Shown: positions 768 through 63,223, counted from the stretch's first letter. The stretch is DNA of 64,000 nucleotides from an uncultured Caenibius sp. (GCA_964468045.1 CAYXTO010000013.1:21392-85391), one strand, 5' to 3'. The notes: generated by a model not told the origin, from the letters alone. Translations and numbers: made by a program.

Positions 768-897
768 GGTCCACTCGTTCCTTTCCCCCTGAATGTAGGG
801 CCGCAGGGATGAATGGCAAGCTAATGCAGGCTGGAACCTCCGCATTTTTGCCTCGATCGGGCGGGAAAGAGGCCCGGCCGGGGAATTCGTAAATAGG

Positions 898-925
898 TTG
901 ACATTCTTCCGGTGCCCCGTAATTT
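898..925 (+). promoter_or_regulatory. Candidate sigma70-like promoter (TTGACA, 16 nt, TAATTT) ahead of the membrane-protein operon
   Basis: Perfect -35 hexamer at 898-903 and an AT-rich -10-like hexamer at 920-925, in the 317-nt intergenic region between divergent ftsH and 1085-1807. Sequence match only. Confidence 0.3.
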
Positions 926-1084
926 GCGTAGGCTGTCAACGCGAAATTGCAGGGCCTCCTGTCTGTCGCATCATCGCGATCCGGAGGTTTTGCCAACAAG
1001 GACGGGCGCCCGGATGATGGCGAGAATCTGAAAGCGGGGCGGCTCAAGCCGAAAATGCGGCGGGCCGGCTGGAGGAGAGGGATT

Positions 1085-1807
1085 ATGGTTCAGCTTACCA
1101 CTGACAACAGCTACGGCACCTGGAAGTTCTGCGCCTGGAACGGCATGATTTTCATGGTGGTTTTCATGATCTTCTGGGGCGGCCTGGGTCATAACCTGCC
1201 CCCTTATGGCGGCGATCTGCCGGCCAGCACCATCGCGGATTATTTCCGTGACAATCGCAACATGGTGAGGCTGGGCATGGTCATCTCGATGACCTTCGCC
1301 GTCAGCTACGCGGTGTGGGGAATTTCCATCGGCAAGGTCATGGATCACATCCTTGGCCGGGATCACATCCTCACCAACCTGCAGGTCTGGGGCGCCGGAC
1401 TGACGGTGGTGCCCATCCTGGTTTCTTCCTCCTTCTGGCTGACGGGCGCCTATCGTCCGGAGGCACTGCCGGATGAAATCCTGCAGTTGATGTACGACAT
1501 GGCCTGGCTGCTGATCGACCTGGCCTATTCGGTCACCTCGGTACAGATGATCGCGCTCGGCTTCGGCTGCCTGCGCGACAAACGCGCCCAGCCCTTCTTC
1601 CCGAAATGGGTCTGCTGGTATTCCATCTGGGTCGGCTTCATGTTCGTCGCCGAATGCCTGATGCCGTTCTTCAAGTCCGGGGCCTTCTCCCGGCAGGGTG
1701 TCCTGAACTTCTGGATCGAGTTCGTGATCTTCTTCATCTACGCGCCAATCATCACCTGGTACCTGCTGAAGGCGATCAATCGCATCCAGCGCGGCGAAGG
1801 CGCCTGA
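1085..1807 (+). CDS. Integral membrane protein of unknown family (about 6 predicted TM helices)
   Basis: Internal ATG of ORF 947-1807, preceded by GGAGGAGAGGG at 1071-1081. The 240-aa product is rich in hydrophobic stretches (FMVVFMIFWGGLG, VISMTFAVSYAVWGI, GLTVVPILVSSSFWL, FWIEFVIFFIYAPIITWYLL). I recognise no catalytic motif. Confidence 0.7.
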   Translation: MVQLTTDNSYGTWKFCAWNGMIFMVVFMIFWGGLGHNLPPYGGDLPASTIADYFRDNRNMVRLGMVISMTFAVSYAVWGISIGKVMDHILGRDHILTNLQVWGAGLTVVPILVSSSFWLTGAYRPEALPDEILQLMYDMAWLLIDLAYSVTSVQMIALGFGCLRDKRAQPFFPKWVCWYSIWVGFMFVAECLMPFFKSGAFSRQGVLNFWIEFVIFFIYAPIITWYLLKAINRIQRGEGA

Positions 1808-1810
1808 TCC

Positions 1811-2713: not shown

Positions 2714-3658
2714 ATGTTTGACAATTCCGTTCTGGCCGAACCTGAAATGGCCATCGACCCGGCCCATGACGGCCGCCACGAACTGCCCAAGATCGCCATG
2801 GGGCGGGAATCCATCCCCTATATCGTGGTCCTGCCGGAGGAACGAATCGCCTTCTTCACCTACACCTGGGTCTCAGCCGACAGCAGGGCGGGTGCGGCCA
2901 TCGCGGTCTTCGGCCCCGGTGTCGGCGACAAGCCGATCCAGCAGCGCCTGCCGGACCGCCCGGTTCCCGCGGACATGGGTTTCGACAAGTGGGAAATCGA
3001 CGGGTTCCGGATGGAACAGGACCTGAAGTTCGACAAGGCGAAGATCCATTGGGAAACGCCGGAAGCGACGATCGATTTCACTTTCGAGGCGTTCCACCCG
3101 CCCTATGCCTATGCTTCCGACCCGCGCGGCTGCCCCAAATATTGCGCGACGGACCGGATCGAGCAGGCCGGCCGCGTCACCGGCACGCTGAAGCTGCCCG
3201 GCCGCACGATCGAGTTTGAAAGCACCGGGCACCGCGACCACAGCTGGGGCACGCGGGACTGGGTTCCCTTCCAGCAATATGAATGGTTCGTCGGCCAGAG
3301 CGGCACCGATATCGCGGTCCACTTCTGGCGCTTCCATGCGCTCGGCAAGGAGCATGTGCGCGGCTTCGTCTACAAGGACGGGCTGATGTCGCGGATCGAG
3401 ACGGTGGAGAATGACGTCGATTACGACGATCAGTACTGGCAGACCGGCTATCGCGCGCGCCTGGTCGACGCAGCCGGGCGGGAAACCACGGTGGAAACCG
3501 AGGTATTCGGTCATTACACGCTGCTGCCCGATCCGGTGGTGAGCCTGAACGAAAGCGGCGGGCGCGCCTTGATCGACGGCAAACCCGGTATAGGCTGGAT
3601 GGAATGCGCCTGGCCGACAGCCTATCTGGAACACATTCGCGCCCACGGCCCGTATTGA
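2714..3658 (+). CDS. Conserved hypothetical protein, unnamed family A, copy 1 of 3
   Basis: ATG at 2714 with GGGAG at 2702-2706. The 314-aa soluble-looking protein shares the blocks QAGRVTGTLKLPGRTIEFESTGHRDHSWGTRDW with the products of 34289-35248 and 57043-57981. Confidence 0.75.
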   Translation: MFDNSVLAEPEMAIDPAHDGRHELPKIAMGRESIPYIVVLPEERIAFFTYTWVSADSRAGAAIAVFGPGVGDKPIQQRLPDRPVPADMGFDKWEIDGFRMEQDLKFDKAKIHWETPEATIDFTFEAFHPPYAYASDPRGCPKYCATDRIEQAGRVTGTLKLPGRTIEFESTGHRDHSWGTRDWVPFQQYEWFVGQSGTDIAVHFWRFHALGKEHVRGFVYKDGLMSRIETVENDVDYDDQYWQTGYRARLVDAAGRETTVETEVFGHYTLLPDPVVSLNESGGRALIDGKPGIGWMECAWPTAYLEHIRAHGPY

Positions 3659-7243: not shown

Positions 7244-9109
7244 CTATAGATCCACCACCAGTTGCGCGCCCCTTGCTCGGGATACGCACAGGCACATATG
7301 CCTGTTTTCGGCTTTCTCCTCGTCCGAGAAATAGGCGTCGCGATGCTCGGCCTCGCCGGAAACGATATCCGCCGCGCACCGCCCGCAGGTGCCCTGCATG
7401 CAGGCGAAGGGCACCTCGATCCCCGCCATCGCCAGCGCATCGATGATGGTGCGGTCGGGCGGCACCTCCACCGATCTGCCGGAGCGGGCGAGTTGCAGGT
7501 TGAACGCCCGGTTCTCGCTGTCGTCGGCAACGGCGGCCGAGAAGGATTCCGTGCGGATCTGGGCCTCGCGCCAGCCTCTCGCGGCTGCTTCCCGGCGGAG
7601 CCAGTCCATGAAGGGCTGCGGACCGCAGAGATAAAGCAGATCTTCCGACCCATGGGTTCCCAGCACTGCGTCGAGATCGATGCCCGAACCGCCCTCGGGC
7701 CGATCCAGATGCACCGTGGCGCAGCGTGACATCGGCCCCTGGGCAAGGTCCTTGCGGAACGCGATTGCGCCTTCATCCCGCGAACAGACATGGAGGTGAT
7801 AAGGCTTGCCCAGCGCATGGAGGCGATGCGCCATCGCCAGCAGCGGCGTGATGCCGATGCCGCCCGCCACCAGCACGAAGCGGGGTGCGTTTTCATAAAG
7901 CACGAAGTTGTTGCGCGGACGGGAGACCGCGATCTCGTCGCCCACCTTCAGCGCATGCATGGCGCGCGAGCCGCCGCGCCCGCCGTCCTCCCGCTTGACC
8001 GCGATGCGATAGCGATTGGCGGCCTGGTCGTGGGACACCAGGGAATATTGGCGGACCAGCCCGTCCGGCAGGTGAACCTCGACATGCGCCCCGGCATCGC
8101 CTGATGGCAGGACGCGGCCGTCGGCCGGCTCAAGATCGAAGGAACGGATGGCATCGGCCTGATCCTCGATCCTGGCGACGCGCATGGCGATCGGCGCACG
8201 ATCCTCCTCGGTCGGGATATGGAATTCTCCCGGCCCTTCGAACCAGCCGCGATCGGGGATGCCCTGCCGGCGCAATACGCCATTGGCGAGCTCCCATACG
8301 CGCCTGTACTTGTACCAGGGCACATGCGGCACGAGGTGGTGAATCGTGTGGTCTTCCTGTCCGAACATCAGCCGCCGGAACGATGAATTGCCCCGCACGT
8401 AAACCGTCGACTGGAACGGTTCATGCTCCCAGGTCAGCCCGGTGGGATGCTGGATATGCGCGAAGGTATAGGCGACGATACCCAGGCCCACGCGCTGCGG
8501 CACCACATAGAGCAGCAGGAATTCCTTCCACCAGGGCGACATCAGGAAGGCGACATGGGAAATCACCACCGTCGCCAGCATGATATGGAACCAGAGGGCG
8601 ACCTTGCCCGACCAGTAATGCCGGCCATAGCGATAATACCAGCCGACCCAGTGCAGATCGGCGAACATCAGGTAGGATACGCCCAGCCATTTCGGCAGAT
8701 CGACGAAGCCGGTGTCGGGATCGCGCCCTTCCTCGCCGGTATAGCGATGATGGTCCATATGAATGGCGCGGAACACCGTCATGTTCACACCGGGCAGGAG
8801 CAGCTGGCCGGGGATCACGCCGAGAAGATCGTTCAGCACGCCATTGCTGGAAACCGCGCGGTGCGAGGCATCGTGCAGCGGCGTGAAGGCCAGATAGACC
8901 GCGCCGAGGTTGAACAGCATCGCGATCCACAAGGGAAGATGGCCGCTCATATAGCCCCATACCCCGAGGCCGAACGCGCCCAGCGCCAGCGCGACCAGCG
9001 CCGCCTGCTGGAACGCCAGAAGCGGCACGCGCATCACATCCGCATAGCGCGGGTCTTTCACAACTTGATTAAGTACATCCCTGACTGCGGGATTTCTGGT
9101 CATGGCCAT
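7244..9109 (-). CDS. Membrane fatty-acid-desaturase-family di-iron enzyme fused to a phthalate-dioxygenase-reductase-type (flavin/NAD/2Fe-2S) reductase
   Basis: The N-terminal ~300 aa has TM helices and three His boxes (HDASH, HMDHHRY, HTIHHLVPHVPWY). The C-terminal ~310 aa has RxYS-like flavin site RQYSLVS, NAD site LVAGGIGITPLL and a plant-type ferredoxin motif CMQGTCGRCAADIVSGEAEH. Confidence 0.85.
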   Translation of the reverse strand: MAMTRNPAVRDVLNQVVKDPRYADVMRVPLLAFQQAALVALALGAFGLGVWGYMSGHLPLWIAMLFNLGAVYLAFTPLHDASHRAVSSNGVLNDLLGVIPGQLLLPGVNMTVFRAIHMDHHRYTGEEGRDPDTGFVDLPKWLGVSYLMFADLHWVGWYYRYGRHYWSGKVALWFHIMLATVVISHVAFLMSPWWKEFLLLYVVPQRVGLGIVAYTFAHIQHPTGLTWEHEPFQSTVYVRGNSSFRRLMFGQEDHTIHHLVPHVPWYKYRRVWELANGVLRRQGIPDRGWFEGPGEFHIPTEEDRAPIAMRVARIEDQADAIRSFDLEPADGRVLPSGDAGAHVEVHLPDGLVRQYSLVSHDQAANRYRIAVKREDGGRGGSRAMHALKVGDEIAVSRPRNNFVLYENAPRFVLVAGGIGITPLLAMAHRLHALGKPYHLHVCSRDEGAIAFRKDLAQGPMSRCATVHLDRPEGGSGIDLDAVLGTHGSEDLLYLCGPQPFMDWLRREAAARGWREAQIRTESFSAAVADDSENRAFNLQLARSGRSVEVPPDRTIIDALAMAGIEVPFACMQGTCGRCAADIVSGEAEHRDAYFSDEEKAENRHMCLCVSRARGAQLVVDL

Positions 9110-17321: not shown

Positions 17322-18212
17322 ATGGAAATTTTTCGCGACGATGTGCTGTCCGGCAAGAATATTCTGGTGACCGGCGGCGGCGGCGGCCTTGGCAAGGAAA
17401 TCGCGCAGGCGCTATCCGCAAAGCATGCCACGGTCCATATTTCCGGGCGCCGGCTCGGAATGCTGGAAGAAACCGCCGCGCGGATCTCGGCGCAGACCGG
17501 ACACCCCGTTCACGCCCATGCCTGCGACGTGCGCGACGCCGATGCGATGGACGCGCTGATCGAGGAAATCTGGCAGGACAAGCCGCTGACCGGGCTGATC
17601 AACAACGCGGCGGCCAACTTCATCTCGCCGACCAAGGATCTCAGTGCGCGGGGCTTCCGCGCCATCACCTCCACGGTGATGGACGGCAGCTTCCACGCCA
17701 CCCTGTCTTGCGGCAAGCGCTGGATTCGCGATGGCCTGCCCGGTTCGGTCGTCTCCAATCTCGTGACCTGGGTATGGACCGGATCCGCCTTCGTGGTGCC
17801 TTCGGCCATGGCCAAGACCGCGCTGCACGCCATGACCATGTCGCTGGCGGCGGAGTGGGGCCCCTACGGCATCCGCCTGAACGCGACCGCTCCCGGCCCC
17901 TTCCCGACGCCCGAAGCCTGGGAAAAGCTGAACCCGCTGCCCGATACGCAAAGCTCCGCGACCAATTGCGACACGATCCCGATGCGGCGCTACGGCAACA
18001 TGCCGGAGCTGACCAACCTCATCACTTTCCTGATGTCGGACGGCTGCGATTTCCTGACCGGGCAGACGATTGCGGTGGACGGGGCGCAGCATCTCGCGGC
18101 CCCCAGCACATTCGCCGACCTCACCAACCTCACCGATGAGCAGTGGCAGGCCGCCCGCGCGGCGATCGAAGCTTCCACCGCCAAATCCAAAGCCGCTCAG
18201 AACCAGGGCTAA
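17322..18212 (+). CDS. SDR-family reductase (2,4-dienoyl-CoA reductase / trans-2-enoyl-CoA reductase-like)
   Basis: Start at MEIFRDDVLSGK with AGGAGAGG at 17311-17318. VTGGGGGLGKE, NNAAANF and the SAMAKTAL active-site region resemble the DECR-type SDR subgroup. Confidence 0.8.
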   Translation: MEIFRDDVLSGKNILVTGGGGGLGKEIAQALSAKHATVHISGRRLGMLEETAARISAQTGHPVHAHACDVRDADAMDALIEEIWQDKPLTGLINNAAANFISPTKDLSARGFRAITSTVMDGSFHATLSCGKRWIRDGLPGSVVSNLVTWVWTGSAFVVPSAMAKTALHAMTMSLAAEWGPYGIRLNATAPGPFPTPEAWEKLNPLPDTQSSATNCDTIPMRRYGNMPELTNLITFLMSDGCDFLTGQTIAVDGAQHLAAPSTFADLTNLTDEQWQAARAAIEASTAKSKAAQNQG

Positions 18213-18218
18213 TCTTCC

Positions 18219-19382
18219 ATGATCGAACGCACGCTTTTCACCCCCGAGCACGAAATGTGGCGCGATACCGCCCGCAAATTCGTGGAGAAGGAAATCGTTC
18301 CCTTCCACGACCAGTGGGAGAAGGACGGCATCGTCCCGCGCGACCTCTGGCTCAAGGCGGGCGAGGCGGGCCTGCTGTGCTGCACCGTGCCGGAAGAATA
18401 TGGCGGGATCGGCGCCGACTATCTCTATGATGTCGTGGTGTTCGAGGAATTGTGGCGGGCCGGCACCAGCGGACCGGGCTTCCTGATCCATACCGACCTC
18501 GTCGCGACCTATATCAAGTCCTTCGGCACCGAGGAGCAGAAGCAGCAATGGCTGCCGAAGATGGTCACCGGCGAAGCCATCGGCTCGCTGGGCATGACCG
18601 AGCCCCATGCCGGCTCCGACCTCAAGGCGATCAAGACCAAGGCAGTACGCGACGGCGACGATTACGTCATCAACGGGCAGAAGGTGTTCATTTCCAACGG
18701 CCAGATGTGCGACGTGCTGGTGCTCGCCACCAAGACCGACAGCGAGGCGGGCGCCAAGGGCGTGACCCTGTTCCTGGTCGACACCAGCCTGCCCGGCTTC
18801 AAGCGCGGCCAGAATCTCGACAAGCTGGGGATGAAAGCGCAGGATACGTCGGAACTGTTCTTCGAGGATCTGCGCGTTCCGGCCAGCGCCATGCTGGGCG
18901 GCGAGGGCGAAGGCTTCAAGCTGATGATGACCAAGCTGTCGCAGGAACGGCTGGCCCAGGCCATCCGCTCCGCCACGGTGACCGAGACGATGATCGAATG
19001 GACGGTGGATTACACCTCGGAACGCAAGGCCTTCGGACAGACCATCGCCGATTTCCAGAACACCCAGTTCGTGCTGGCCGACCTCAAGGCCCGCTCGGTG
19101 ATGGCCCGGGTCTTCACCGACAAGTGCATCGAGCTGTTCATGCAGGACAAGCTGGACGCGGTGGATGCGGCGATGCTCAAGATGGTCACCTCGGAGCTGC
19201 ACTGCGAAGCGGCGGACAAGTGCCTCCAGCTGTTCGGCGGCTGGGGCTATATGTGGGAATATCCGATCTGCCGCGCCTATGCGGATTCCCGCATCGTCAA
19301 GATCGCGGGCGGCTCGATCGAGATCATGAAGACCATCATCGCGCGTGAAATGTTCAAGGGCAGGATCGGCAGGAAACAATGA
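18219..19382 (+). CDS. Acyl-CoA dehydrogenase
   Basis: 387 aa. GMTEPHAGSDL, INGQKVFISNG, and C-terminal GGWGYMWEYPICRAYADSRIVKIAGGSIEIMKTIIARE with the catalytic Glu. Confidence 0.9.
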   Translation: MIERTLFTPEHEMWRDTARKFVEKEIVPFHDQWEKDGIVPRDLWLKAGEAGLLCCTVPEEYGGIGADYLYDVVVFEELWRAGTSGPGFLIHTDLVATYIKSFGTEEQKQQWLPKMVTGEAIGSLGMTEPHAGSDLKAIKTKAVRDGDDYVINGQKVFISNGQMCDVLVLATKTDSEAGAKGVTLFLVDTSLPGFKRGQNLDKLGMKAQDTSELFFEDLRVPASAMLGGEGEGFKLMMTKLSQERLAQAIRSATVTETMIEWTVDYTSERKAFGQTIADFQNTQFVLADLKARSVMARVFTDKCIELFMQDKLDAVDAAMLKMVTSELHCEAADKCLQLFGGWGYMWEYPICRAYADSRIVKIAGGSIEIMKTIIAREMFKGRIGRKQ

Positions 19383-19879
19383 GCGCCAAGCCATATCGTC
19401 CGATGCAAAAGGATCTCGACGCCTATCTGCGGTTCGGGTTCCTGATCCACGATGTCTCGCGGCTGCGCCGCATCGTGGTGGACCGGGCGCTCAAGCCGCT
19501 GGGCATCACGCGCTCGCAATGGTGGGTGCTCGCCTTCCTGTCGCGCCGCGACGGGATGACGCAGACCGCGCTGGCCGCCGATCTCGACCTTACCAAGGTC
19601 GCCATCGGCGGGCTCATCGACCGCATGGAGTCGGCCGGCTTCGTCGAACGCCGGTCTGACGAACGCGATGCCCGCGCAAGGCGCGTGTTCCTGACCGGCG
19701 CGGGGCAGAACCTGGTCGCCACCATCCGCCGGGCGGTGGATGCGGTCGAATCCGATATCCTCGAAGTGGTCAGCGTCGAGGAGCTCGATGCCGCGGCGCA
19801 GGCCCTCGTCAAGGTGAAGGGACGCTTGCTCGAACTCTTGGGCGGCGAAACCGATTTCGCGCAGGACCTGGAGCCCTGA
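19379..19879 (+). CDS. MarR-family transcriptional regulator
   Basis: 166 aa. Winged-helix pattern LGITRSQWWVLAFLSRRDGMTQTALAADLDLTKVAIGGLIDRMESAGFVERRSDERDARARRVFLT. ATGA overlap with the ACAD gene. Confidence 0.85.
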   Translation: MSAKPYRPMQKDLDAYLRFGFLIHDVSRLRRIVVDRALKPLGITRSQWWVLAFLSRRDGMTQTALAADLDLTKVAIGGLIDRMESAGFVERRSDERDARARRVFLTGAGQNLVATIRRAVDAVESDILEVVSVEELDAAAQALVKVKGRLLELLGGETDFAQDLEP

Positions 19880-19910
19880 TCGCACAACCCAATCGTCAAT
19901 GGAGGAATTT

Positions 19911-20669
19911 ATGAAGGGATTGGCCGGAAAGGTGGCGATCGTCACCGGTGGCGGACAAGGTATCGGCAGGGCGCTGGCGTTGCGCCTGGCCGAGGAAGGC
20001 TGCAAGGTCGCAATCTTCGATCTCAGCATCGAAGCCGGCGAGGAGACCGCGAAGCTGGCCGGTGACGCAACCGTGAAGACCTACAAGGTCGATGTGAGCG
20101 ATTTCGACGCGGTTCAGGCTGCGGTAGAGGCCGTCGAGAACGATCTCGGTCCCGTCTGGGCGCTCGTCAACAATGCCGGCTGGGACAAGGTCCAGCCCTT
20201 CCTCACCACCACGCCCGATCTCTGGGAAAAGATCATCGCGATCAATCTCAAGGGCAATCTCAACACGCACTTCGCGGTCGCCAGCCGGATGGCCAGCCGT
20301 GGCGGCGGGCGCATCATCAATATCGCCTCGGATGCGGCGCGCGTCGGCACCAGCAATGAAGCCGTCTATTCGGCCTGCAAGGGCGGCCTGATCGCCTTCA
20401 CCAAGTCGATTGCCCGCGAGCTGGCCCGCAAGGGCGTGCTCGCCAATTGCGTCTGCCCGGGGCCGACCAACACCCCGATGATGGAAGCGACGCTGGGCCA
20501 GGGTCCGGAGGCCGAGAAGTGGAAGGACGCGATGGTCCGCGGCGTTCCGGTCAAGCGCATCGGCGAACCGGAAGACTATGCCGGCATGGTCGCGCTGCTC
20601 GCGTCGGACGATGGCGCCTACATCACCGGCCAGGCAATCTCGATTTCCGGCGGCCTGACGATGGTCTGA
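19911..20669 (+). CDS. SDR-family dehydrogenase, BadH-like (2-hydroxycycloalkane-carboxyl-CoA dehydrogenase-like)
   Basis: ATG at 19911 follows GGAGGA (19901-19906). An alternative ATG lies at 19899. VTGGGQGIG, NNAGWDKVQPFLTTTPDLWEKIIAINLKG, YSACKGG. The WDK..PF..T block is what I associate with BadH-type enzymes. Confidence 0.8.
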   Translation: MKGLAGKVAIVTGGGQGIGRALALRLAEEGCKVAIFDLSIEAGEETAKLAGDATVKTYKVDVSDFDAVQAAVEAVENDLGPVWALVNNAGWDKVQPFLTTTPDLWEKIIAINLKGNLNTHFAVASRMASRGGGRIINIASDAARVGTSNEAVYSACKGGLIAFTKSIARELARKGVLANCVCPGPTNTPMMEATLGQGPEAEKWKDAMVRGVPVKRIGEPEDYAGMVALLASDDGAYITGQAISISGGLTMV

Positions 20670-20675
20670 CCGCAG

Positions 20676-21104
20676 ATGGGTTTCGTGCAATCTCCTCCCG
20701 GCGGCTTCGAATTGCTGACTCCCAATAACCCCTATTGGGAGCAATTCGGCCCGGTCTATGCGGACCGGCCCAGGAAGCTGCTGGGTTTCAGGATTGCGGA
20801 GCACCACTGCAACCCGGTCAAATCGCTACACGGTGGGGCACTGGCCACTTTCGCCGACATGCAGCTCATGGCGCTGCCTGAGTATGACGGCAAGCTGGAA
20901 ACACACGCCCCCACCATCTCACTATCGCTGGACTATATCGGTCCGGCTCATCTCGGCGAGTGGGTCGAGGCGGAAGTGGTGGTCGATCGGACCACCCGGA
21001 GGCTTCTGTTCATTCGCTCGATGATCACCGCCGAGGGCCGCACCATCGCCCGGTCGAATGCCCTCTACCGCAATCACGACAAGACAGGATACCCCCTGAC
21101 ATGA
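20676..21104 (+). CDS. PaaI/YdiI-type hot-dog thioesterase
   Basis: 142 aa. HCNPVKSLHGGALATFADM is typical of PaaI-family thioesterases. Paralog of 62705-63223. Confidence 0.8.
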   Translation: MGFVQSPPGGFELLTPNNPYWEQFGPVYADRPRKLLGFRIAEHHCNPVKSLHGGALATFADMQLMALPEYDGKLETHAPTISLSLDYIGPAHLGEWVEAEVVVDRTTRRLLFIRSMITAEGRTIARSNALYRNHDKTGYPLT

Positions 21105-21889
21105 CCCAAGCATTCGAAGACATCATCTACGAAATTCGCGGCCGTGCGGCCTGGATCATCATCAACCGGCCCAAGCTGTACAACGCCTTCCGCGCCCAAA
21201 CGCTGGAAGAAATGATTTCCGCGTTCAAGCTGGCGGCAGACGACAAGGGCGTGTCCTGCGTCGTGCTCACCGGCGCGGGCGACAAGGCATTCTGCACCGG
21301 CGGCGACCAGAGCGCCCATGAAGGCCAGTATGACGGGCGCGGCATCGTCGGCCTGCCGATCGACGAATTGCAGTCGATCATCCGCGACATCCCCAAGCCG
21401 GTCATCGCCCGCATCAATGGCTTCGCGATCGGCGGCGGCAATGTCTTCGCCACGCTGTGCGACCTCTCGATCATGGCCGACACCGCCAAGCTCGGCCAGG
21501 TCGGCCCGAAGGTCGGCTCGATCGACGCCGGCTGGGGCACCGCTCTGCTGGCCCGCCACGTGGGCGACAAGAAGGCCCGCGAGATCTGGTATCTCAACCT
21601 GCAGTATACCGCGCAGGAAGCGCTGGCGATGGGCCTGGTCAACAGGGTCGTCCCCGCCGCCGAGCTGGACGACGCGGTGAACGAATGGACCGACATCATC
21701 GGCCAGCGTTCGCCCACCGCCCTTGCTCTCGCCAAGCGCAGCTTCAACGCCGACAGCGACAATATCCGCGGTATCTCGATGCTCGCGCTGAACGCGGTGA
21801 AGCTGTTCTACGATACCGCTGAATCGAAGGAAGGGGTCAACGCCTTCAACGAAAAGCGCACTCCGGATTTCCACAAATATGTCAAGTAA
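21101..21889 (+). CDS. MenB/BadI-subfamily crotonase (candidate beta-ketoacyl-CoA ring hydrolase / Dieckmann-type enzyme)
   Basis: ATGA overlap with the thioesterase gene. FCTGGDQ, GQVGPKVGSIDAGWGT, AREIWYLNLQYTAQEALAMGLVNRVVP, and C-terminal EGVNAFNEKRTPDF match the pattern shared by naphthoate synthase MenB and 2-ketocyclohexanecarboxyl-CoA hydrolase BadI. Confidence 0.85.
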   Translation: MTQAFEDIIYEIRGRAAWIIINRPKLYNAFRAQTLEEMISAFKLAADDKGVSCVVLTGAGDKAFCTGGDQSAHEGQYDGRGIVGLPIDELQSIIRDIPKPVIARINGFAIGGGNVFATLCDLSIMADTAKLGQVGPKVGSIDAGWGTALLARHVGDKKAREIWYLNLQYTAQEALAMGLVNRVVPAAELDDAVNEWTDIIGQRSPTALALAKRSFNADSDNIRGISMLALNAVKLFYDTAESKEGVNAFNEKRTPDFHKYVK

Positions 21890-21904
21890 GCTACGGGCTG
21901 CCGC

Positions 21905-23149
21905 ATGACGATCCAGCCGCGCCGCCTTGCATCCGGTGAACTCGCCGGGGCCCTGTCCCCCGGCGGGCACACCATCCTGTCCTCCTGCTCGGCGGAGAGC
22001 GATCTGCTCGCCGCCGAAGTGGAAGGTGCAGGCAGCGCGCTGGGCGATATGCGATTCTCGGGCATCTTCGTGCCCGCCGTGAACCGGCATGTGTGGCGGG
22101 CCGGCCCGGAAAGCAGCGTCACCACCTTCTTCCAGACACCCGACCTGCGCAAGGAAGGCGCGCGCAGCACCTTCCTGCCGCTGTGCTATCAGGACGTGAG
22201 CGGCTGGTACGGGCAGAACCCGCCCTCGGCGGCGCTGTTCATGTGCTCGCCCCCCGATGCGAATGGCCGCTGCAGCTTCGGCACCGAGGTCGCCTTCGTG
22301 GCGGACAACTGGCGCAGGACCCGCACCCGCATCGCCCATATCAATCCGCTGATGCCGGCCACGCCGGGCGATGAAGGCATTCCGTTCTCCGAGCTCACCG
22401 CCTATTTCGAGGCGGAACAGCCGCTCCGCACCATGGCCGTGGGCGGAACCGATCCGATCACCCAGGCCATCGCGGTCAACGCCGCCCGGTTCGTGGAGGA
22501 TGGAGCGACCGTGCAGACCGGCCTCGGCAAGCTGCCCGACGCCGTGCTGGACCTGTTGGTCGATCGCCGGAACCTGAGGCTCAATACCGGGCTGATCTGC
22601 GACGCCGCGCTGCGCCTCGTCAATTCCGGGGCCATGGCGGATGGCCCCTCCGCCATCGTCGGCTGCGCCTTCGGCGCTGAAACTCTCTATGCCGGGCTGG
22701 ACAACCCGCATTTCCAGTTCCGCCCGGTCTCCGTCACGCACGATGTCATTCGCCTTGCGGGCGTGCCGAAGCTGATAACCATCAACTCCGTGATGAGCGT
22801 GGATCTGTTCGGCCAGGGCTTTGCCGAGGCGTCCGCGCGCGGGTTCATGTCAGGCCCCGGCGGCGCCAGCGATTTCGCGCGCGCGGCGCGCTATAGCCCG
22901 GGCGGCCTGCGGATCATCATCCTGCCATCGGCGGCGGGCGATATCAGCCGTATCGTCGCTCCGGGCGAAGGGATCGGGCCCGCGTCGCTCAGCCGGATGG
23001 ACATCGACGTCGTGGTAACGGAACATGGCGCGGCGGACCTGCGCGGCAAGAGCCATCAGGACCGGGCAAAACTGCTGATCGGCATTGCCGATCCCGCCCA
23101 TCGCGAGGCATTGGAGCGCGCCTGGGCGGAAGTAGCGGTAATCATCTGA
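21905..23149 (+). CDS. Acetyl-CoA hydrolase/transferase family protein (CoA-transferase)
   Basis: 414 aa. C-terminal GPGGASDFARAA and VVTEHGAADLRGKS blocks are typical of the 4-hydroxybutyrate/acetyl-CoA transferase family. Confidence 0.85.
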   Translation: MTIQPRRLASGELAGALSPGGHTILSSCSAESDLLAAEVEGAGSALGDMRFSGIFVPAVNRHVWRAGPESSVTTFFQTPDLRKEGARSTFLPLCYQDVSGWYGQNPPSAALFMCSPPDANGRCSFGTEVAFVADNWRRTRTRIAHINPLMPATPGDEGIPFSELTAYFEAEQPLRTMAVGGTDPITQAIAVNAARFVEDGATVQTGLGKLPDAVLDLLVDRRNLRLNTGLICDAALRLVNSGAMADGPSAIVGCAFGAETLYAGLDNPHFQFRPVSVTHDVIRLAGVPKLITINSVMSVDLFGQGFAEASARGFMSGPGGASDFARAARYSPGGLRIIILPSAAGDISRIVAPGEGIGPASLSRMDIDVVVTEHGAADLRGKSHQDRAKLLIGIADPAHREALERAWAEVAVII

Positions 23150-23161
23150 AGGGAAGAGGAA

Positions 23162-24091
23162 ATGGCGAAGGACAAGGTTATCATCAGCTGCGCGATCACG
23201 GGGTCGATCCACACCCCGTCGATGTCGCCGCATCTTCCGGTCACACCCGCCGAGATCGCGGAAAGCGCGCTCGGCGCGGCGGAAGCCGGCGCGGCCATCG
23301 TGCATCTCCATGCCCGTAACCCGGAGGATGGCCGCCCCGATCAGTCGCCCGAGGCGTTCGAGCCCTTCCTCAAGGTCATCAAGCAAAGCTCCAACGTGGT
23401 GGTGAACCTCACCACCGGCGGATCGCCCTACATGCCGGTGGAAGAGCGGGTGAAGCCCGCCGAAGTGTGGAAGCCGGAGGTCGCCAGCCTCAACATGGGT
23501 TCGATGAACTTCGGCCTGTTTCCGATGCTGAAGCGCTACAAGGATTTCAAGTATGACTGGGAAGAGCCGATGCTCCGCAATTCGGACGATCTGGTCTTCC
23601 GCAACAGCTACAAGGACATCCGCTACGCGCTCGAAACGCTGAACAAGTCCGGCGCCCGCTACGAGTTCGAATGCTACGACACCAGCCACCTCTATAATCT
23701 GCACTATTTCTGGCAGGAAGGCCTCGTCCAAGCGCCATTGTTCATCCAGACCTGTTTCGGCCTGCTCGGCGGTATCGGCTCGCATCCTGACGATGTGATG
23801 CATATGAAGCGCACGGCCGACCGCCTGTTCGGCGACAATTACCGCTGGTCGGTGCTGGCTGCGGGCGTGGGCCAGATGCGCGTCGCGGCAATGGCCGCGT
23901 CAATGGGCGGCCATGTCCGGGTCGGCCTCGAGGATTCGCTCTGGATCGGGCGCGGCAAGCTGGCCGAAACCAACGCGGCGCAGGTCAGCAAGGTTCGCCA
24001 GATCATCGAAGGGCTCGGCCTTGAGATCGCCACGCCCGACGACGCGCGCGAAATCCTTTCGCTCAAGGGCGGCGATCAGGTCGGCTTCTGA
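23162..24091 (+). CDS. Beta-keto acid cleavage enzyme (BKACE, 3-keto-5-aminohexanoate cleavage enzyme family, DUF849)
   Basis: N-terminal VIISCAITGSIHTPSMSPHLPVTPAEIA...AAIVHLHARNPEDGRP and C-terminal GGHVRVGLEDSLW are the characteristic BKACE TIM-barrel / zinc-site blocks. Confidence 0.9.
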   Translation: MAKDKVIISCAITGSIHTPSMSPHLPVTPAEIAESALGAAEAGAAIVHLHARNPEDGRPDQSPEAFEPFLKVIKQSSNVVVNLTTGGSPYMPVEERVKPAEVWKPEVASLNMGSMNFGLFPMLKRYKDFKYDWEEPMLRNSDDLVFRNSYKDIRYALETLNKSGARYEFECYDTSHLYNLHYFWQEGLVQAPLFIQTCFGLLGGIGSHPDDVMHMKRTADRLFGDNYRWSVLAAGVGQMRVAAMAASMGGHVRVGLEDSLWIGRGKLAETNAAQVSKVRQIIEGLGLEIATPDDAREILSLKGGDQVGF

Positions 24092-24131
24092 CCGCATCAC
24101 CCAGCATTCCAGACTTTCAGGGACCGATAGA

Positions 24132-48649: not shown

Positions 48650-48800
48650 CGGCACGCGAAAAACCGGAGGGGGGAAGCCCGCCGGCATAAATTAAGTCGA
48701 GTGTCCGAATAGGAACGACGCCTTTTCGAGTCAACCCGCGTTTTCGAAATAACATCGGCTTTTTGAATGACAAGCGCCAAATGCTCCCAATCCCTGAAAT

Positions 48801-49601: not shown

Positions 49602-49740
49602 CTTCTCCCCGCATCGAAAACGCAATTTCCCGGCTGCCGTAACTGCACGTCCGGGACGGGTAAAGCCGAAAGACTTTTTGATTCGGTTTGACCTGTCTTG
49701 CCTCTCTTTCTACACCCAAGAGCGGAGGGAGAAGAATAAA

Positions 49741-60529: not shown

Positions 60530-60734
60530 CAAGTTCCTCCCTGAAGCGAACTCCGACATGAGTTCGGCTTTTCCAGAGAGCGGCTCGTAATTTCGGACGA
60601 CGGATTGTCAACGTATTCCCGACAATGTTTCAGGAAAATACTCCAACGTGTTGCAAAAAAGGCGCAGCCGCTTTTCTACGGTGATCCTCGGGTCTGGAGT
60701 GTGATTTCCCCGCCGTGCCGTTCAAAGCAAACCA

Positions 60735-60785: not shown

Positions 60786-61304
60786 TTAGAGAGTGACGCC
60801 TTCGGGCAGGTCGAGCGCGACCACCGGGATCTCCCGCTGGCAACGAGTCTGATATTCAGCCTGGGCCGGCTGCTCCTTGGTGATGAAATCCCAATAGGCC
60901 TTGCGCGCTTCGCCGGTGATCACGCGCGCGGTGGCTTCGGAGCCGTTGGCGCCGACCTGGATGCGGCACTGCGGGTTCGCCTGCAGGTTGAGGAACCATA
61001 CCGGCGGCTCTTCCGTGCCGCCGCGCGAGGCGACGATCAGGATATCGCCATTGAAGCGATAATATTGCAGCGCCGTGTTGCGCCATTCCCCGCTCTTGCG
61101 GCCGAGATGGTGCAGCAGCAGGCAGGAAACCGGGCCGCCCGGCGTGCCGATCGCGATCGGATCCCAGTAATGCGCCGCCTCCGGATCGGTGAGATATTGC
61201 TGCCGGTGCTTTTCCAGCTCTTCCTTCACCAGGTCCGGGAGAGCCTTGAACTCATCCTTCGCAAAATTTGCTGCGCGAACCTCATCCATCTTTCCAGACG
61301 ACAT
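60786..61304 (-). CDS. Deazaflavin-dependent nitroreductase (DDN / DUF385, split beta-barrel FDOR-A) family protein
   Basis: LLLHHLGRKSGEWRNTALQYYRFNGDILIVASRGGTEEPPVWFLNLQANPQCRIQVG matches the G-R-K-S-G...R...P-L...V-A-S-x-G-G...P-x-W-x-x-N-L-x-A-N-P pattern of the family. Confidence 0.8.
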   Translation of the reverse strand: MSSGKMDEVRAANFAKDEFKALPDLVKEELEKHRQQYLTDPEAAHYWDPIAIGTPGGPVSCLLLHHLGRKSGEWRNTALQYYRFNGDILIVASRGGTEEPPVWFLNLQANPQCRIQVGANGSEATARVITGEARKAYWDFITKEQPAQAEYQTRCQREIPVVALDLPEGVTL

Positions 61305-61494
61305 CTCTCTACTCTCCCGATTTCGCTACGAAGAGCGAGGTAAACCGGCAGGGCCTGTCATTGTCAATCGATTCTCCTTCGGCTTTTGGAGATTCGCGCT
61401 GCCCCCTTGGCTTGCCGGGCGACAGGCTATAGGCGGGTGTTCCGCAAAACCATGGGCCATCAGCAGGCCGGACCACATCCAACTGGACGAGGAT

Positions 61495-62691
61495 ATGCCG
61501 ACAGACATTCGCAGCAACCCAGACAAGGCCTGGATCGAAGCCGTTCGCGAGCGGTATGAGGTCGAACGGACGGTGGACCTCGCCCTCACCCGCAAGCTGG
61601 AGCGGCGCGGCGCGCAGACTTTCAGCATCGCCCAGCTCGATGAATTGACCCAGCGGCTGGAAGCCTTCCTGGCGAAGCGGCTCGAAGGACCTTTCGCGAT
61701 TCGCAACCTGCGCGCGCTGACGGGGGGCAATTCCAAGGAGCAGTTCTCCTTCGAGCTCGACTGGAATTGCAATGGCGAGGCCCGCAAGGGCGAAAAGATG
61801 GTGCTCCGCCGCGAGCAGGCCGAATCCATCGTGGAGGCCGACAAGCTGAGGGAATTCCAGCTGGTCAGGGTGGCCGCATCGATGATGCCGGTTCCTACCG
61901 CCTACTGGCTGGACGAAAGCGGGGATGAGCTGGGCCGCCCCGCGCTGATCTACAGCTTCGTGACCGGAGTGCAGAAGCCGACCAAGTCAACCAGCAAGGT
62001 CACTGGAATCGGGATCAATTTCGATGCCGATTACCGCGCCGCGCTCGGGCCGCAATTCATCGATTACCTCGCGCGGATCCATAATTTCGAGCCTGCCGGG
62101 CACGACCTGTCCGCCTTCGATATGCCGCAGGTCGGCACCACTCAGGATGTGGACTGGCAGATCAACTGGTGGGCCAGGGCCTGGTTCGAGGACCGGCTGG
62201 AAGAGGTCCCGCTCATGACTATGGCCGAGCGGTGGCTCCGGGCCAACCGCAAGCCCCTCGATCATGTGTCGCTGATCCACGGCGATTTCCGCACCGGCAA
62301 CTTCCTGTTCGACGAGGATACGCTCAAGATCACGGCGATACTCGATTGGGAAACCGGATATTTCGGCGATCGCCATGGCGATCTAGCGTGGGTCCTCAAT
62401 CCGGTCTTCATCACCCCATCCGAAACCGGCGAGCCGCTGTACACTTCGCTCTTCGCACGCGACAAGTTCCTGCGTGATTACGAGAAGGCGAGCGGCCTCA
62501 CGGTGGATGAGGAACGGCTGACCTATTATAATATATTCGCTTATTGGCGTTCGGTCGTGCTCACCCTGGGCGCCGGCCCGCGCGCGGCGGGGGCGCTCAA
62601 GACTCATCAGGACGTCGTGCTGAGCTGGTTCGCGGGGATTTCCTATCCTCTCATCGAGGCACTGCGCCGGGAACTGGACAAGGTCGTCTGA
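61495..62691 (+). CDS. APH-fold phosphotransferase, paralog of 55804-56997
   Basis: Start moved to MPTDIRSNPDK (ATG 61495). TGGNSKEQFSFEL, LIHGDFRTGNFLFDE, ILDWETGYFGDRHGDLAW align block for block with the other kinase. Confidence 0.85.
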   Translation: MPTDIRSNPDKAWIEAVRERYEVERTVDLALTRKLERRGAQTFSIAQLDELTQRLEAFLAKRLEGPFAIRNLRALTGGNSKEQFSFELDWNCNGEARKGEKMVLRREQAESIVEADKLREFQLVRVAASMMPVPTAYWLDESGDELGRPALIYSFVTGVQKPTKSTSKVTGIGINFDADYRAALGPQFIDYLARIHNFEPAGHDLSAFDMPQVGTTQDVDWQINWWARAWFEDRLEEVPLMTMAERWLRANRKPLDHVSLIHGDFRTGNFLFDEDTLKITAILDWETGYFGDRHGDLAWVLNPVFITPSETGEPLYTSLFARDKFLRDYEKASGLTVDEERLTYYNIFAYWRSVVLTLGAGPRAAGALKTHQDVVLSWFAGISYPLIEALRRELDKVV

Positions 62692-62704
62692 TCGGCAGTC
62701 CAGC

Positions 62705-63223
62705 ATGACAAGCCCGACACCGGACGGCTTCGTCCGCTTCGACAATCTGGCAGGCAATGCCTACATGGAAATGGTCGGCCCGCTGTTCATGCGGGTCGAT
62801 TCCGAACGCGGCCCCTTGTTCGGCTTCCGGGTCGAGCAGCGTCACTGCAACGCCATCGGCATCTGCCATGGCGGAATGATCGCCACCTTCGCCGATATCT
62901 ACCTGCCGACCCAATTGCGGTTCGATCCGGAATTCGACGACGGCTATACGCCCACGATATCCCTGACGCTCGATTTTCTGGGCATGGCCAGGGTCGGCGC
63001 ATGGGTCGAGGGAAGCGGGCGCCTGCTCAGAAGAACCGGCCGGATAATCTTCACCGAGGGCCTTGTCACCGCCGATGGCGAACCGGTCCTGCGGGCGAGC
63101 GGAACGTTCCGGAAAGGCAAGCCGGGCGAGCGGGTCGATACCAACGAGCATCTGCAATCACTGGCGGGGACGTGGCCGACTCCGCCGCTTTCCGGCCCGG
63201 GGCCTTCAGTGCGCCGCCAGTGA
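62705..63223 (+). CDS. PaaI-type hot-dog thioesterase, paralog of 20676-21104
   Basis: HCNAIGICHGGMIATFADI and TPTISLTLDFLGMARVGAWVEGSG align with the other thioesterase. The low-complexity C-terminal tail overlaps the convergent MFS gene by 18 nt. Confidence 0.8.
   Translation: MTSPTPDGFVRFDNLAGNAYMEMVGPLFMRVDSERGPLFGFRVEQRHCNAIGICHGGMIATFADIYLPTQLRFDPEFDDGYTPTISLTLDFLGMARVGAWVEGSGRLLRRTGRIIFTEGLVTADGEPVLRASGTFRKGKPGERVDTNEHLQSLAGTWPTPPLSGPGPSVRRQ

Follow-up and report, generated by a model that had tools for sequence, protein, structure and literature searches.

A modular catabolic island with a possible role in the breakdown of terpenoid-like or alicyclic compounds in an activated-sludge sphingomonad

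The stretch GCA_964468045.1 CAYXTO010000013.1:21392-85391 of an uncultured Caenibius sp. (64,000 nucleotides, called the window below) carries a catabolic island of about 62 kb between ftsH on the left and a gene for a major facilitator superfamily (MFS) transporter on the right. This locus raises the question whether such an island encodes one pathway or several, and which compounds are degraded. An earlier note, made from the sequence alone, had proposed one super-cluster of about 60 kb for a single bulky hydrophobic substrate. The comparison with related loci instead yielded a mosaic. It consists of five or more modules of operon size, which are conserved separately from one another and occur in differing combinations. 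The analogies of these modules all point to substrates that contain saturated rings, methyl ketones and carbons of the tertiary or quaternary type. The proposal that the island catabolises terpenoid-like or alicyclic (naphthenic-type) compounds and passes carbon centres that block beta-oxidation was given about an even chance of being right; the substrates and the order of steps are read from the analogies. The chief interest lies in two modules, namely a cassette with a kinase and a lyase similar to 25-phosphosteroid lyase (25-PSL), and an operon for a putative carboxylase of non-phenolic ketones.

The G+C content of the window is 59-67%, so that plain lists of open reading frames (ORFs) are crowded with antisense artefacts. 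Gene models were built with a GC3-based picker, a Pfam scan of every candidate ORF and the called genes of close relatives, which yielded about 59 genes; these form nine or ten transcription units. A scan with Rfam did not give any RNA family. Unless another source is named, family assignments and absences refer to this Pfam scan of the window ORFs. For the analysis of synteny, all window proteins were compared by tblastn with about 60 related loci of 20 kb (L numbers below).

The enzymes of CoA-ester metabolism comprise three AMP-ligases, four acyl-CoA dehydrogenases (ACADs), five crotonases (ECH), two MaoC hydratases, four thiolase-fold genes, one of which is fused to a DUF35 OB domain, one free DUF35 gene, two 4HBT thioesterases, a CoA-transferase (AcetylCoA_hyd_C), an enzyme for the cleavage of beta-keto acids (BKACE), a CitE/HpcH lyase and a split carboxylase consisting of biotin carboxylase (BC), biotin carboxyl carrier protein (BCCP) and a PYC_OADA carboxyltransferase (CT). 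In addition, four short-chain (SDR) and three medium-chain dehydrogenases/reductases (MDR), two kinases of the aminoglycoside phosphotransferase (APH) fold and three DUF7065/DUF7064 paralogues were found, together with a type I Baeyer-Villiger monooxygenase (BVMO), a luciferase-like monooxygenase (LLM), a nitronate monooxygenase (NMO) family protein, an FA_desaturase-FNR-Fer2 fusion, a membrane dehydrogenase dependent on pyrroloquinoline quinone (PQQ), Abhydrolase_3, Amidohydro_2 and metallo-beta-lactamase (MBL) fold hydrolases, a TonB-dependent receptor, and MarR and TetR regulators. Every class in the earlier note was recovered in the number given there, and its unnamed family of three copies proved to be DUF7065/DUF7064. 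Five of its six redox types stood, and the sixth, a 'DAD-like cupin', turned out to be a ChrR-like Cupin_7 protein. It had missed six genes, encoding SnoaL_4, COX3-like, COX4_pro-like, tandem-EthD and F420H2_quin_red-like proteins and a 166-amino-acid kinase partner. The absences it had listed, KstD/KshAB among them, held: domains of Rieske and extradiol dioxygenases, P450, KstD/KshA and benzoyl-CoA reductase were found in none of the ORFs.

In a scan of genome collections, the closest relatives of the carboxyltransferase were encoded in metagenome-assembled genomes (MAGs) named Novosphingobium (90% identity), Caenibius (89%) and Sphingomonadaceae (86%). The DNA of the window was found only in metagenomes from activated sludge, bioreactors and wastewater, and the metagenome contigs placed on it were sub-kb fragments with a depth of 5-10x. 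A search for RNA data yielded a single run, of unknown kind, that contains the sequence, and a look-up of the window proteins by exact sequence did not give a match. The host is an uncultured Novosphingobium/Caenibius-like sphingomonad of activated sludge, and the region is chromosomal.

The five modules are a BadH/BadI-like-BKACE-CitE block (operons 2 and 3), the carboxylase operon (operon 6), a TonB receptor-DUF7064-APH-small protein cassette, a SnoaL-ligase-LLM-DUF7064 block (operon 5) and a COX3/COX4-like-DUF7064-MDR-crotonase-ligase block (operon 1). The clustering is not due to chance, as many other genomes and metagenome contigs contain these blocks with their gene order retained. The whole 60 kb is not conserved beyond near-identical relatives; a 95%-identical relative (L106) has the same order over the first 19 kb, including FtsH. 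In a Caenibius MAG (L104), a variant of the cassette with the order DUF7064-APH-small protein-DUF7064 is situated inside the counterpart of operon 1, which starts with a TonB receptor gene and converges on the counterpart of operon 2. This links the cassette with operon 1, and, judged from gene order, operons 1, 2 and 3 and the cassette clearly appear to be functionally connected.

A dedicated super-cluster with one bulky substrate and one linear route would be in accordance with the uninterrupted series of about 50 catabolic genes that extends from FtsH to the MFS gene, with the lack of tRNA genes (tRNA scan) and mobile-element genes in the window, with the gene order of L106, and with the fusion of cassette and operon 1 in Caenibius, which shows that some modules belong together. 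This explanation is nevertheless improbable. The flanks of the carboxylase operon differ between L005, L006, L007 and L016, the cassette is found by itself behind a receptor in Spongiibacter and Sphingobium, soil contigs have other genes next to the BKACE core, and close relatives carry a 6-kb insertion between two operons. There are also two routes for ketones, two kinases and three paralogous lyases, which suggests more than one substrate or branch. The idea of one super-cluster is therefore not supported; the modules occur apart and recombined elsewhere, and some genes, such as that of the PQQ dehydrogenase, show no conserved linkage to them. The earlier suggestion that the pathway as a whole looks undescribed agrees with the synteny search, in which the available collections and literature yielded no syntenic cluster that has been characterised.

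The kinase/lyase cassette consists of four genes:

58070-60559, minus strand: TonB-dependent receptor
57043-57981, minus strand: DUF7064 paralogue 3
55804-56997, minus strand: APH-fold kinase APH1 (Pfam APH), with the motifs HGDLRIGN and DWE
55304-55804, minus strand: helical protein of 166 amino acids without a Pfam family, starting at the APH1 stop codon

The motifs HGDxxxGN and DWE are intact in both window kinases, and both match the kinase domain of ACAD11, the Mycobacterium tuberculosis structure 3ats and PDB entry 9fsg. The order of the four genes is repeated in L100/L101, L102 (in tandem), L103 and L108 and, as a variant, in L104, and thus in at least six loci. The hosts are a sludge contig, Sphingobium (with the two tandem copies), Spongiibacter, a gammaproteobacterial MAG and Caenibius (with the variant). 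The recurrent linkage to a TonB-dependent receptor is in line with the earlier proposal that the substrate is imported via this receptor. The 166-amino-acid protein always follows the kinase, with 33-42% identity in Sphingobium and Spongiibacter; its AlphaFold2 model from the single sequence had a pLDDT of 62, which did not suffice to search for similar folds. Such an arrangement is reminiscent of LvaB, the small partner of the kinase LvaA.

The three DUF7065/DUF7064 paralogues are 25-28% identical to one another, and nothing on DUF7064 was found in the literature. A search of the PDB with the single sequence of paralogue 3 did not give any match. A profile of three sequences matched the PDB entries of 25-PSL via invariant family motifs (E = 1.3e-5), and a profile of 74 sequences, including the three window paralogues, matched the 25-PSL entry 9fzn with E = 3.7e-20. 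An AlphaFold model of paralogue 3 (pLDDT 92.4) was used for a Foldseek search, and the top five hits were 25-PSL entries (9g4c, 9g2i, 9fzn) with E values down to 6e-16 and TM scores of 0.64-0.67. The next hits were AttH, fungal decalin-forming pericyclases and kievitone hydratase; AttH and kievitone hydratase likewise act at prenyl or tertiary C-O centres. Judged from the profiles and the predicted fold, the DUF7064 family is homologous to 25-PSL, a relationship that surfaced only through profiles and the fold search and not with a single sequence. At a level of 50% identity, the family falls into about 1,300 clusters.

The tertiary C25 alcohol is phosphorylated in Sterolibacterium by a kinase that belongs to the phosphotransferase family, and a lyase that was then unidentified eliminates the phosphate (PMC8449060; PMC11061730); no candidate lyase gene was present near the kinase gene (PMC8449060). 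A paper on the 25-PSL structures was not found. The system of Sterolibacterium denitrificans, 25-hydroxysteroid kinase (25-HSK) and 25-PSL (9fzn, 9g2i, 9g4c), and the cassette have in common a kinase of the APH/phosphotransferase type and a lyase of the same fold with the motifs RDxSWGxR and GxxGYG. The implied logic, known here from the genes, is also the same, i.e., a non-oxidisable alcohol would be phosphorylated and the phosphate eliminated to yield an alkene. In contrast to that system, kinase and lyase are adjacent in the window and form an operon with the TonB receptor and the 166-amino-acid protein, there are three lyase paralogues and two kinases, and the host carries O2-dependent enzymes. 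Furthermore, the molybdenum C25/C26 hydroxylases are missing from the window, and no molybdopterin enzyme is encoded in the 64 kb. By analogy, we infer that the cassette would catalyse the ATP-dependent dehydration of an imported alcohol. As a side observation, a DUF7064 homologue with 48% identity adjoins a molybdopterin oxidoreductase in a Nevskia MAG (L107, 8001-11174), surrounded by genes for old yellow enzyme, SDR, glutathione S-transferase, MC_hydratase, two ACADs and a desaturase; this grouping recalls the pairing of molybdenum hydroxylase and lyase in anaerobic sterol degradation.

The second module of special interest, operon 6, contains 12 genes in the order Thl3-Thl2-DUF35-MBL-ECH4-ACAD4-ACAD3-MDR3-FadD3-BCCP-BC-CT, preceded by a predicted operator-like box:

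48741..48758, minus strand: predicted operator-like box upstream of the first gene, CCGA-N-TGTTTCGGAAAA
47454-48560, minus strand: thiolase-fold protein Thl3
46300-47457, minus strand: thiolase-fold protein Thl2
45358-46287, minus strand: DUF35 protein of 309 amino acids
44469-45302, minus strand: MBL-fold hydrolase
43640 to ~44425, minus strand: crotonase ECH4
42440-43630, minus strand: ACAD4
41311-42432, minus strand: ACAD3
40255-41304, minus strand: MDR3
38777-40237, minus strand: acyl-CoA synthetase FadD3
38209-38718, minus strand: BCCP (Biotin_lipoyl) with the biotinylation motif VMKL
36835-38205, minus strand: BC (Biotin_carb_N/CPSase_L_D2/Biotin_carb_C)
35367-36830, minus strand: PycB-type CT (PYC_OADA)

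Operon 6 is intact in L001, L003, L005, L006, L007 and L016. Three of the carriers are sphingomonad MAGs, and the others are a gammaproteobacterial MAG, an uncultured Sphingomonas and Novosphingobium sp. SG720. The flanks of the operon vary, with genes for Amidohydro_2, TetR, TonB receptor, SDR and cupin nearby in variable order; in SG720 the operon is adjoined by a biotin synthase gene. A 65%-identical carboxylase was found in the plasmid collection on N. resinovorum pSA1, with other neighbours and without annotation. Boxes similar to CCGA-N-TGTTTCGGAAAA are present at the same intergenic position in L005 (~2020-2050), L006 and L016, and from their sequence the boxes may be TetR-type binding sites. 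In the same three loci a second box, CCGAC..GTCGA, was also seen upstream of the carboxylase operon. A promoter and terminator scan of the divergent region did not give a match.

The characterised Hpe/Acv/Xcc carboxylases use a PycB-type carboxyltransferase, and AcvE is PycB-like. Operon 6 resembles these systems (Rhodococcus rhodochrous GD02, Sphingobium SYK-6, Aromatoleum EbN1) in having separate genes for BCCP, BC and PycB-type CT as well as a beta-keto-acid CoA ligase. In contrast to them, it additionally encodes two ACADs, a crotonase, an MDR and an MBL hydrolase, and two Cys-less thiolase-fold proteins together with the 309-amino-acid DUF35 protein replace the canonical thiolase/hydrolase. 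CT, BC and FadD3 are 45%, 51% and 49% identical, respectively, to proteins of a cluster on plasmid pRB98 of Rhodococcus oxybenzonivorans, which is itself uncharacterised. In this cluster CT lies between BCCP plus BC and an OB-fold protein plus thiolase, and an AMP-ligase, two phosphoenolpyruvate (PEP)-utilising kinases and a phosphatase are also encoded; by its content, the pRB98 gene set is that of the characterised Hpe/Acv pathways for aryl methyl ketones. Downstream of the carboxylase cluster of pRB98 (L018, 16510-21142), genes for an APH kinase, an ACAD, a CaiB-type CoA-transferase and an NMO 49% identical to the window NMO were observed, which is another grouping of kinase and ACAD of the ACAD10/11 or Lva type. 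A geranyl-CoA carboxylase of the Atu/Liu type was considered and rejected, because the sole carboxyltransferase is a PYC_OADA TIM-barrel and not a crotonase-fold Carboxyl_trans protein (PF01039).

Thl2 and Thl3 have SGGGAG and E-DG at the position of NMCATG, and GANP and PADP at the position of GHP, and thus lack the thiolase Cys and His. Their orthologues in SG720 (L016, 2643-4909) also lack both residues, whereas the Rhodococcus enzyme and Thl1 of the window have kept them. Operon 6 is therefore devoid of a canonical thiolase, although beta-keto compounds are made or used. The neighbouring ACAD pair, the hydratase and the Cys-less thiolase-fold proteins with DUF35 are shared with the steroid side-chain aldolase systems ChsE1E2/ChsH1H2/Ltp2 of Mycobacterium and Shy/Sal of Proteobacteria. 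However, the NCBIfam models of the Ltp type were far under their cutoffs for the window proteins, so that orthology is not supported, and the window has two Cys-less paralogues and a stand-alone DUF35 protein of 309 amino acids, tied to a carboxylase. ACAD3 and ACAD4 are weakly similar to PimC and PimD. From these analogies, operon 6 may be proposed to encode dehydrogenation by the PimCD-like pair, hydration, an Ltp2-like retro-aldol cleavage to a ketone, carboxylation and CoA ligation. Genes for the carboxylation of isoprenoid ketones were not found in the literature.

A further module comprises operon 2 and the nine genes of operon 3 (17322..25415, plus strand), which are transcribed divergently:

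7244..9109, minus strand: fusion of a membrane diiron desaturase/hydroxylase, a reductase and a 2Fe-2S ferredoxin (FA_desaturase, FAD_binding_6, NAD_binding_1, Fer2), last gene of operon 2
9233-10189, minus strand: NMO-family flavoenzyme
10191-11042, minus strand: MFE-2-type hydratase
11047-11961, minus strand: SDR1
11972-13150, minus strand: ACAD1
13220-14092, minus strand: CitE-type beta-hydroxyacyl-CoA lyase (HpcH_HpaI)
14089-14544, minus strand: mesaconyl-CoA-hydratase-like MaoC protein (MC_hydratase)
14558-15757, minus strand: thiolase Thl1 (passes NF004810 with 652 vs 403 bits; Cys88 and His343 retained)
15757-17184, minus strand: PhlA/KAS-III-like protein fused to a DUF35 OB domain (OB_ChsH2_C), first gene of operon 2
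17322-18212, plus strand: SDR2, 2,4-dienoyl-CoA-reductase-like, operon 3
18219-19382, plus strand: ACAD2, operon 3
19379-19879, plus strand: MarR regulator, operon 3
19899-20669, plus strand: SDR3, BadH-like (Pfam, NCBIfam), operon 3
20676-21104, plus strand: 4HBT thioesterase, operon 3
21101-21889, plus strand: ECH2, BadI-like (Pfam, NCBIfam), operon 3
21905-23149, plus strand: CoA-transferase, operon 3
23162-24091, plus strand: BKACE (Pfam, NCBIfam), operon 3
~24132-25415, plus strand: ECH3, operon 3

BKACE matched, over its full length, the equivalog model NF053538 (3,5-dioxohexanoate:acetyl-CoA acetone transferase) with 547 bits at a cutoff of 430. For ECH2 the top NCBIfam model was BadI (TIGR03210, 405 bits, cutoff 467.6), followed by MenB with 326 bits, and for SDR3 it was BadH (314 bits, cutoff 431). 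The models of cyclohexanecarboxyl-CoA dehydrogenase (AliB-type ACAD) missed their cutoffs with 228 vs 575 and 225 vs 650 bits. The operon resembles the Bad/Ali system of Rhodopseudomonas palustris, because an ACAD, a BadH-like SDR, a BadI-like crotonase of the MenB family and MarR are encoded together; the bad cluster also carries a MarR regulator. In contrast to Bad/Ali, a CoA-transferase is found where the ligase AliA would be, the scores remain under the equivalog cutoffs, and BKACE, the PaaI-type thioesterase, the CitE/MaoC/ACAD triad, the pair of PhlA-like/DUF35 protein and thiolase, and the desaturase fusion are added.

In at least ten long metagenome loci with 60-90% identity the order CitE-Thl1-fusion / SDR2-ACAD2-MarR-SDR3-4HBT-ECH2-CoA-transferase-BKACE-(ligase)-ECH3 was found, and many soil contigs have a second arrangement, in which ACAD2-SDR3-ECH2-BKACE is joined to ACAD1-CitE(-MaoC). 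In all, the BadH/BadI-like, BKACE and CitE core was seen in dozens of contigs. BKACE is 82-89% identical across more than 500 metagenome contigs, inside an uncharacterised CoA-ester cluster. The order NMO/hydratase/SDR1/ACAD1 is retained in L104, L106 and L076. In Marinobacter sp. NP-6 the block is compact; it includes the desaturase fusion and lacks BKACE. In most relatives (L030, L033, L044, L051 and others) an AMP-ligase gene was observed between BKACE and ECH3, which is missing from the window (24091-24132) and from L076; operon 3 thus depends either on its CoA-transferase or on ligases whose genes lie outside it. The literature yielded nothing on a BadI-like cluster of sphingomonads, and the NetSyn paper on BKACE does not contain this gene context.

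The nearest PDB entry of the CitE-type protein is CitE of M. tuberculosis (6aq4, Rv2498c; E = 8e-34), which we take to be a beta-hydroxyacyl-CoA lyase for citramalyl- and 3-hydroxy-3-methylglutaryl-CoA; the RipC/Ccl cutoff was not reached (174 vs 375 bits). CitE and MaoC are conserved together with ACAD1 and BKACE in many contigs, and by analogy the CitE/MaoC/ACAD triad could convert a 3-substituted acyl-CoA to acetyl-CoA and a ketone. The orphan (1-hydroxycyclohexan-1-yl)acetyl-CoA lyase reaction would be an example of such a conversion. Thl1 is, judged from its retained residues and model score, a bona fide thiolase. The N-terminal part of the DUF35 fusion shows a weak resemblance to PhlA (9skh/5m3k, E = 5e-10). 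The desaturase fusion has three His boxes, and its reductase part resembles phthalate dioxygenase reductase (2pia). Full-length orthologues are present in Caenibius, Nevskia, Marinobacter and Spongiibacter, and none was found in the plasmid collection.

A second candidate for the conversion of ketones is the BVMO, which is encoded in operon 8 together with the kinase cassette:

54473-55261, minus strand: tandem-EthD protein, operon 8, between kinase cassette and BVMO
52701-54359, minus strand: type I BVMO, distal gene of operon 8

Its fingerprint FxGxxxHxxxWP is intact (FRGETYHTYYWP). The nearest solved relative is OTEMO (3uov) with 599 bits, compared with 491 bits for PAMO, 460 for STMO and 437 for CHMO. 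OTEMO belongs to the camphor pathway on the CAM plasmid of Pseudomonas putida and oxidises a CoA-activated alicyclic terpenoid ketone. It leads the other solved relatives by about 110 bits, and the island also encodes an LLM-type flavoenzyme; unlike in the camphor system, the neighbours of the window BVMO are EthD and the kinase/lyase cassette, and no cam genes are present in the window. In another sphingomonad, OTEMO-like BVMOs are grouped with genes for LLM, P450, NTF2 and a TonB receptor.

These analogies can be arranged to a putative route. The substrate would be taken up via the TonB-dependent receptor. The APH kinase would form a phosphate ester of a hard-to-oxidise, probably tertiary alcohol, and DUF7064 would eliminate the phosphate and leave an alkene, with the small helical protein as a companion. 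Three ligases and one CoA-transferase would provide activation to CoA esters. At beta-substituted carbons, dehydrogenation by ACADs and hydration by MaoC or crotonase proteins would be followed by retro-aldol cleavage to acetyl-CoA and a ketone, for which either the CitE-type lyase or the Cys-less thiolase-fold/DUF35 proteins would be responsible. The biotin-dependent carboxylase would turn the ketone into a beta-keto acid, to be used by a ligase or by BKACE; as an alternative, the OTEMO-like BVMO would oxidise the ketone, and ester/lactone hydrolases would follow. The BadH/BadI-like pair would open alicyclic 2-oxoacyl-CoA rings. The branched and/or alicyclic CoA-ester, ketone and lactone chemistry of the earlier note thus gained support from the best models BadH and BadI, the BKACE cutoff, the relatedness to ketone carboxylases, the 25-PSL homology and OTEMO. 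A more far-reaching version is tentative and rather doubtful: the receptor/lyase/APH/small-protein cassette might be a widespread aerobic system for the ATP-driven dehydration of unactivated tertiary terpenoid alcohols and, together with operon 6, form an undescribed general route, by which chains of the isoprenoid or alicyclic type would be cut at their tertiary and quaternary carbons via a ketone and its re-carboxylation.

Several results weigh against the terpenoid-like or alicyclic interpretation. DUF7064 and 25-PSL are only 16-18% identical, and paralogues 1 and 2 lack an adjacent kinase in the window. Every protein of operon 6 misses every equivalog cutoff; the CT reached 327 vs 402 bits with the domain model, 285 vs 756 with oadA and 281 vs 734 with PycB. 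ECH2 and SDR3 remain below the curated BadI and BadH cutoffs. In contrast to Hpe/Acv/Xcc, the window lacks a PEP-utilising/PPDK domain and a phosphatase; the absence of a kinase of the PEP-synthase type and of a phosphatase makes a phenolic substrate unlikely. The carboxylase could also act on a 2-oxo acid instead of a ketone. Last, the PQQ dehydrogenase, the cupin, MDR2, the esterase and SDR4 have no conserved linkage to the rest. This last point would also be expected if the island had no common theme and were an accretion of paralogue-rich genes of general fatty-acid and lipid metabolism, of which sphingomonad genomes carry many; the G+C content is uniform, without any sign of recent transfer. 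Such an accretion is very unlikely, however, because enzymes are concentrated here that ordinary beta-oxidation does not need (BKACE, BadI-like hydrolase, CitE lyase, biotin carboxylase, kinase/lyase pairs, BVMO), and in other taxa, too, the modules are found joined or at a short distance from one another.

Two more specific substrates were weighed. Caenibius, a genus to which steroid degraders belong, is among the closest named relatives, and the island might serve the degradation of sterol or bile-acid side chains and/or of the C/D rings (HIP). DUF7064 is homologous to an enzyme of the sterol side chain, the island encodes a heteromeric pair of ACADs, Ltp-like proteins that lack the Cys and are accompanied by DUF35, a split MFE-2-like SDR/hydratase, NMO and LLM, and the APH kinases are in the same broad family as 25-hydroxysteroid kinase (phosphotransferase-family; PMC8449060). 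A steroid island is unlikely nonetheless: the 64 kb lack KstD, KshAB, Hsa/Tes, IpdAB-type CoA_trans (PF01144), FAD_binding_2, Rieske, extradiol, P450 and molybdenum hydroxylase genes, the IpdE2 model reached 116 vs 450 bits, the models of the Ltp3/Ltp4 type were far under cutoff, and Marinobacter, Spongiibacter and Nevskia carry these modules as well. A pathway for the steroid nucleus was dropped, as no ring enzymes are encoded in the window. Of the resemblance to a steroid toolkit that had been pointed out before, the side-chain tools (ACAD pair, Ltp-like proteins without Cys and His, DUF35) remained, and a nucleus or HIP pathway is not indicated. Polyketide-type beta-di- or triketones (phloroglucinol- or acylphloroglucinol-like) or lignin-derived aryl ketones are likewise very unlikely substrates. 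They would explain why BKACE passes the model for the cleavage of 3,5-dioxohexanoate (triacetate), a reaction that was reportedly named in a study of anaerobic phloroglucinol degradation, and why the pair of Thl1 and the fusion resembles PhlC/PhlA/PhlB and the carboxylase is related to those of Hpe/Acv/Xcc for aryl ketones; BadI/MenB-type crotonases can hydrolyse beta-diketones, and sphingomonads are lignin degraders. Yet genes for aromatic ring cleavage, phloroglucinol reductase, a PEP-type phenol kinase and a phosphatase are absent from the window, the PhlA match is weak, and the many ACADs, the MaoC hydratases, the OTEMO-like BVMO and the 25-PSL homologues fit saturated substrates better.

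The bacterial mineralisation of saturated, branched and polycyclic terpenoids or naphthenic-type acids is poorly known, and the window contains candidates for the missing chemistry. A 2026 study of activated-sludge Sphingomonas that degrade Ambrox could link no more than the initial oxidation to genes (PMC13599519). The kinase/lyase pair, if the assignment is true, would carry the 25-PSL reaction beyond a single anaerobic degrader of sterols and into many aerobic Proteobacteria. By analogy, the biotin carboxylase likely acts on non-phenolic ketones, and the BadI-like/BKACE/CitE cluster is highly conserved without having an assigned substrate. Such enzymes are relevant where the fate of fragrance, resin and petroleum-derived compounds in wastewater treatment, i.e., their biodegradability, is to be predicted, and would add catalysts for C-O and C-C chemistry at hindered carbons.

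The left border of the island and operon 1 contain the following genes:

3..935, minus strand: N-terminal part of FtsH (FtsH_ext and AAA), housekeeping gene at the left edge of the island
1085-1807, plus strand: unknown membrane protein of 240 amino acids, first gene of operon 1
1811-2446, plus strand: COX3-like protein (COX3)
2443-2709, plus strand: COX4_pro-like protein of 88 amino acids (COX4_pro)
2714..3658, plus strand: DUF7065/DUF7064 paralogue 1, 25-PSL homologue, with the motifs RDHSWGTR and GxPGxG
3721-4827, plus strand: MDR1
4838-5626, plus strand: crotonase ECH1
5633-7192, plus strand: acyl-CoA synthetase FadD1

FtsH is also the neighbour in the 95%-identical relative. The trio of small membrane proteins is kept directly upstream of a DUF7064 gene in L104 (Caenibius), L106 and L033, and the order MDR1-ECH1-FadD1 is retained in L104 (52-78% identity) and L106. 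Oxidase subunits I and II were not seen near the COX3/COX4_pro-like trio (1085-2709, plus strand).

The middle of the island comprises single genes and operon 5:

25441-26472, minus strand: MDR2, enone-reductase type
26810-27700, minus strand: Abhydrolase_3 esterase
~27888-28649, plus strand: SDR4
28665-29696, minus strand: Amidohydro_2 hydrolase (start set by alignment to the L016 orthologue, 59% identity)
29708-30415, minus strand: TetR regulator
30601-31176, plus strand: SnoaL_4 protein, operon 5
~31187-32815, plus strand: FadD2, operon 5
32901-34118, plus strand: LLM flavin oxidoreductase, operon 5
34289-35248, plus strand: DUF7064 paralogue 2, operon 5

Conserved synteny of MDR2, the esterase and SDR4 with their neighbours was not found in the related loci. 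Amidohydro_2 and TetR recur beside the carboxylase operon in L005, L006, L007 and L016, and the pair of LLM and DUF7064 paralogue 2 is conserved at 80% identity beside this operon in L001-L003. In L001 (11605-18004) and L003 (11608-17721) about 6 kb are inserted between the carboxyltransferase gene and the gene of paralogue 2, encoding a second BVMO that is 36-39% identical to the window BVMO and, in L001, also an esterase. Judged from these loci, the site appears to be an indel hotspot between two modules. The comparison with relatives revealed that the ORFs 30451-31158 (minus strand) and 29466-29711 (plus strand) and a 5' extension of the Amidohydro_2 ORF are antisense artefacts.

The remaining genes flank operon 8 or lie at the right end:

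48801-49625, minus strand: crotonase ECH5
49678-52140, plus strand: membrane PQQ dehydrogenase (passes TIGR03074, glucose/quinate/shikimate family, with 930 vs 833 bits)
52137-52625, plus strand: Cupin_7 protein (ChrR-like)
60786-61304, minus strand: F420H2_quin_red-like (split-barrel) protein
~61495-62691, plus strand: kinase APH2
62705-63223, plus strand: 4HBT thioesterase
63206..64000, minus strand: C-terminal part of the MFS transporter (weak MFS_1 match), extending past the window end

Synthesis of F420 is not expected in the proteobacterium that encodes the F420H2_quin_red-family protein. A PQQ dehydrogenase with 43% identity is encoded about 8 kb from the kinase/lyase cassette in L100, which is either a loose association or a coincidence.

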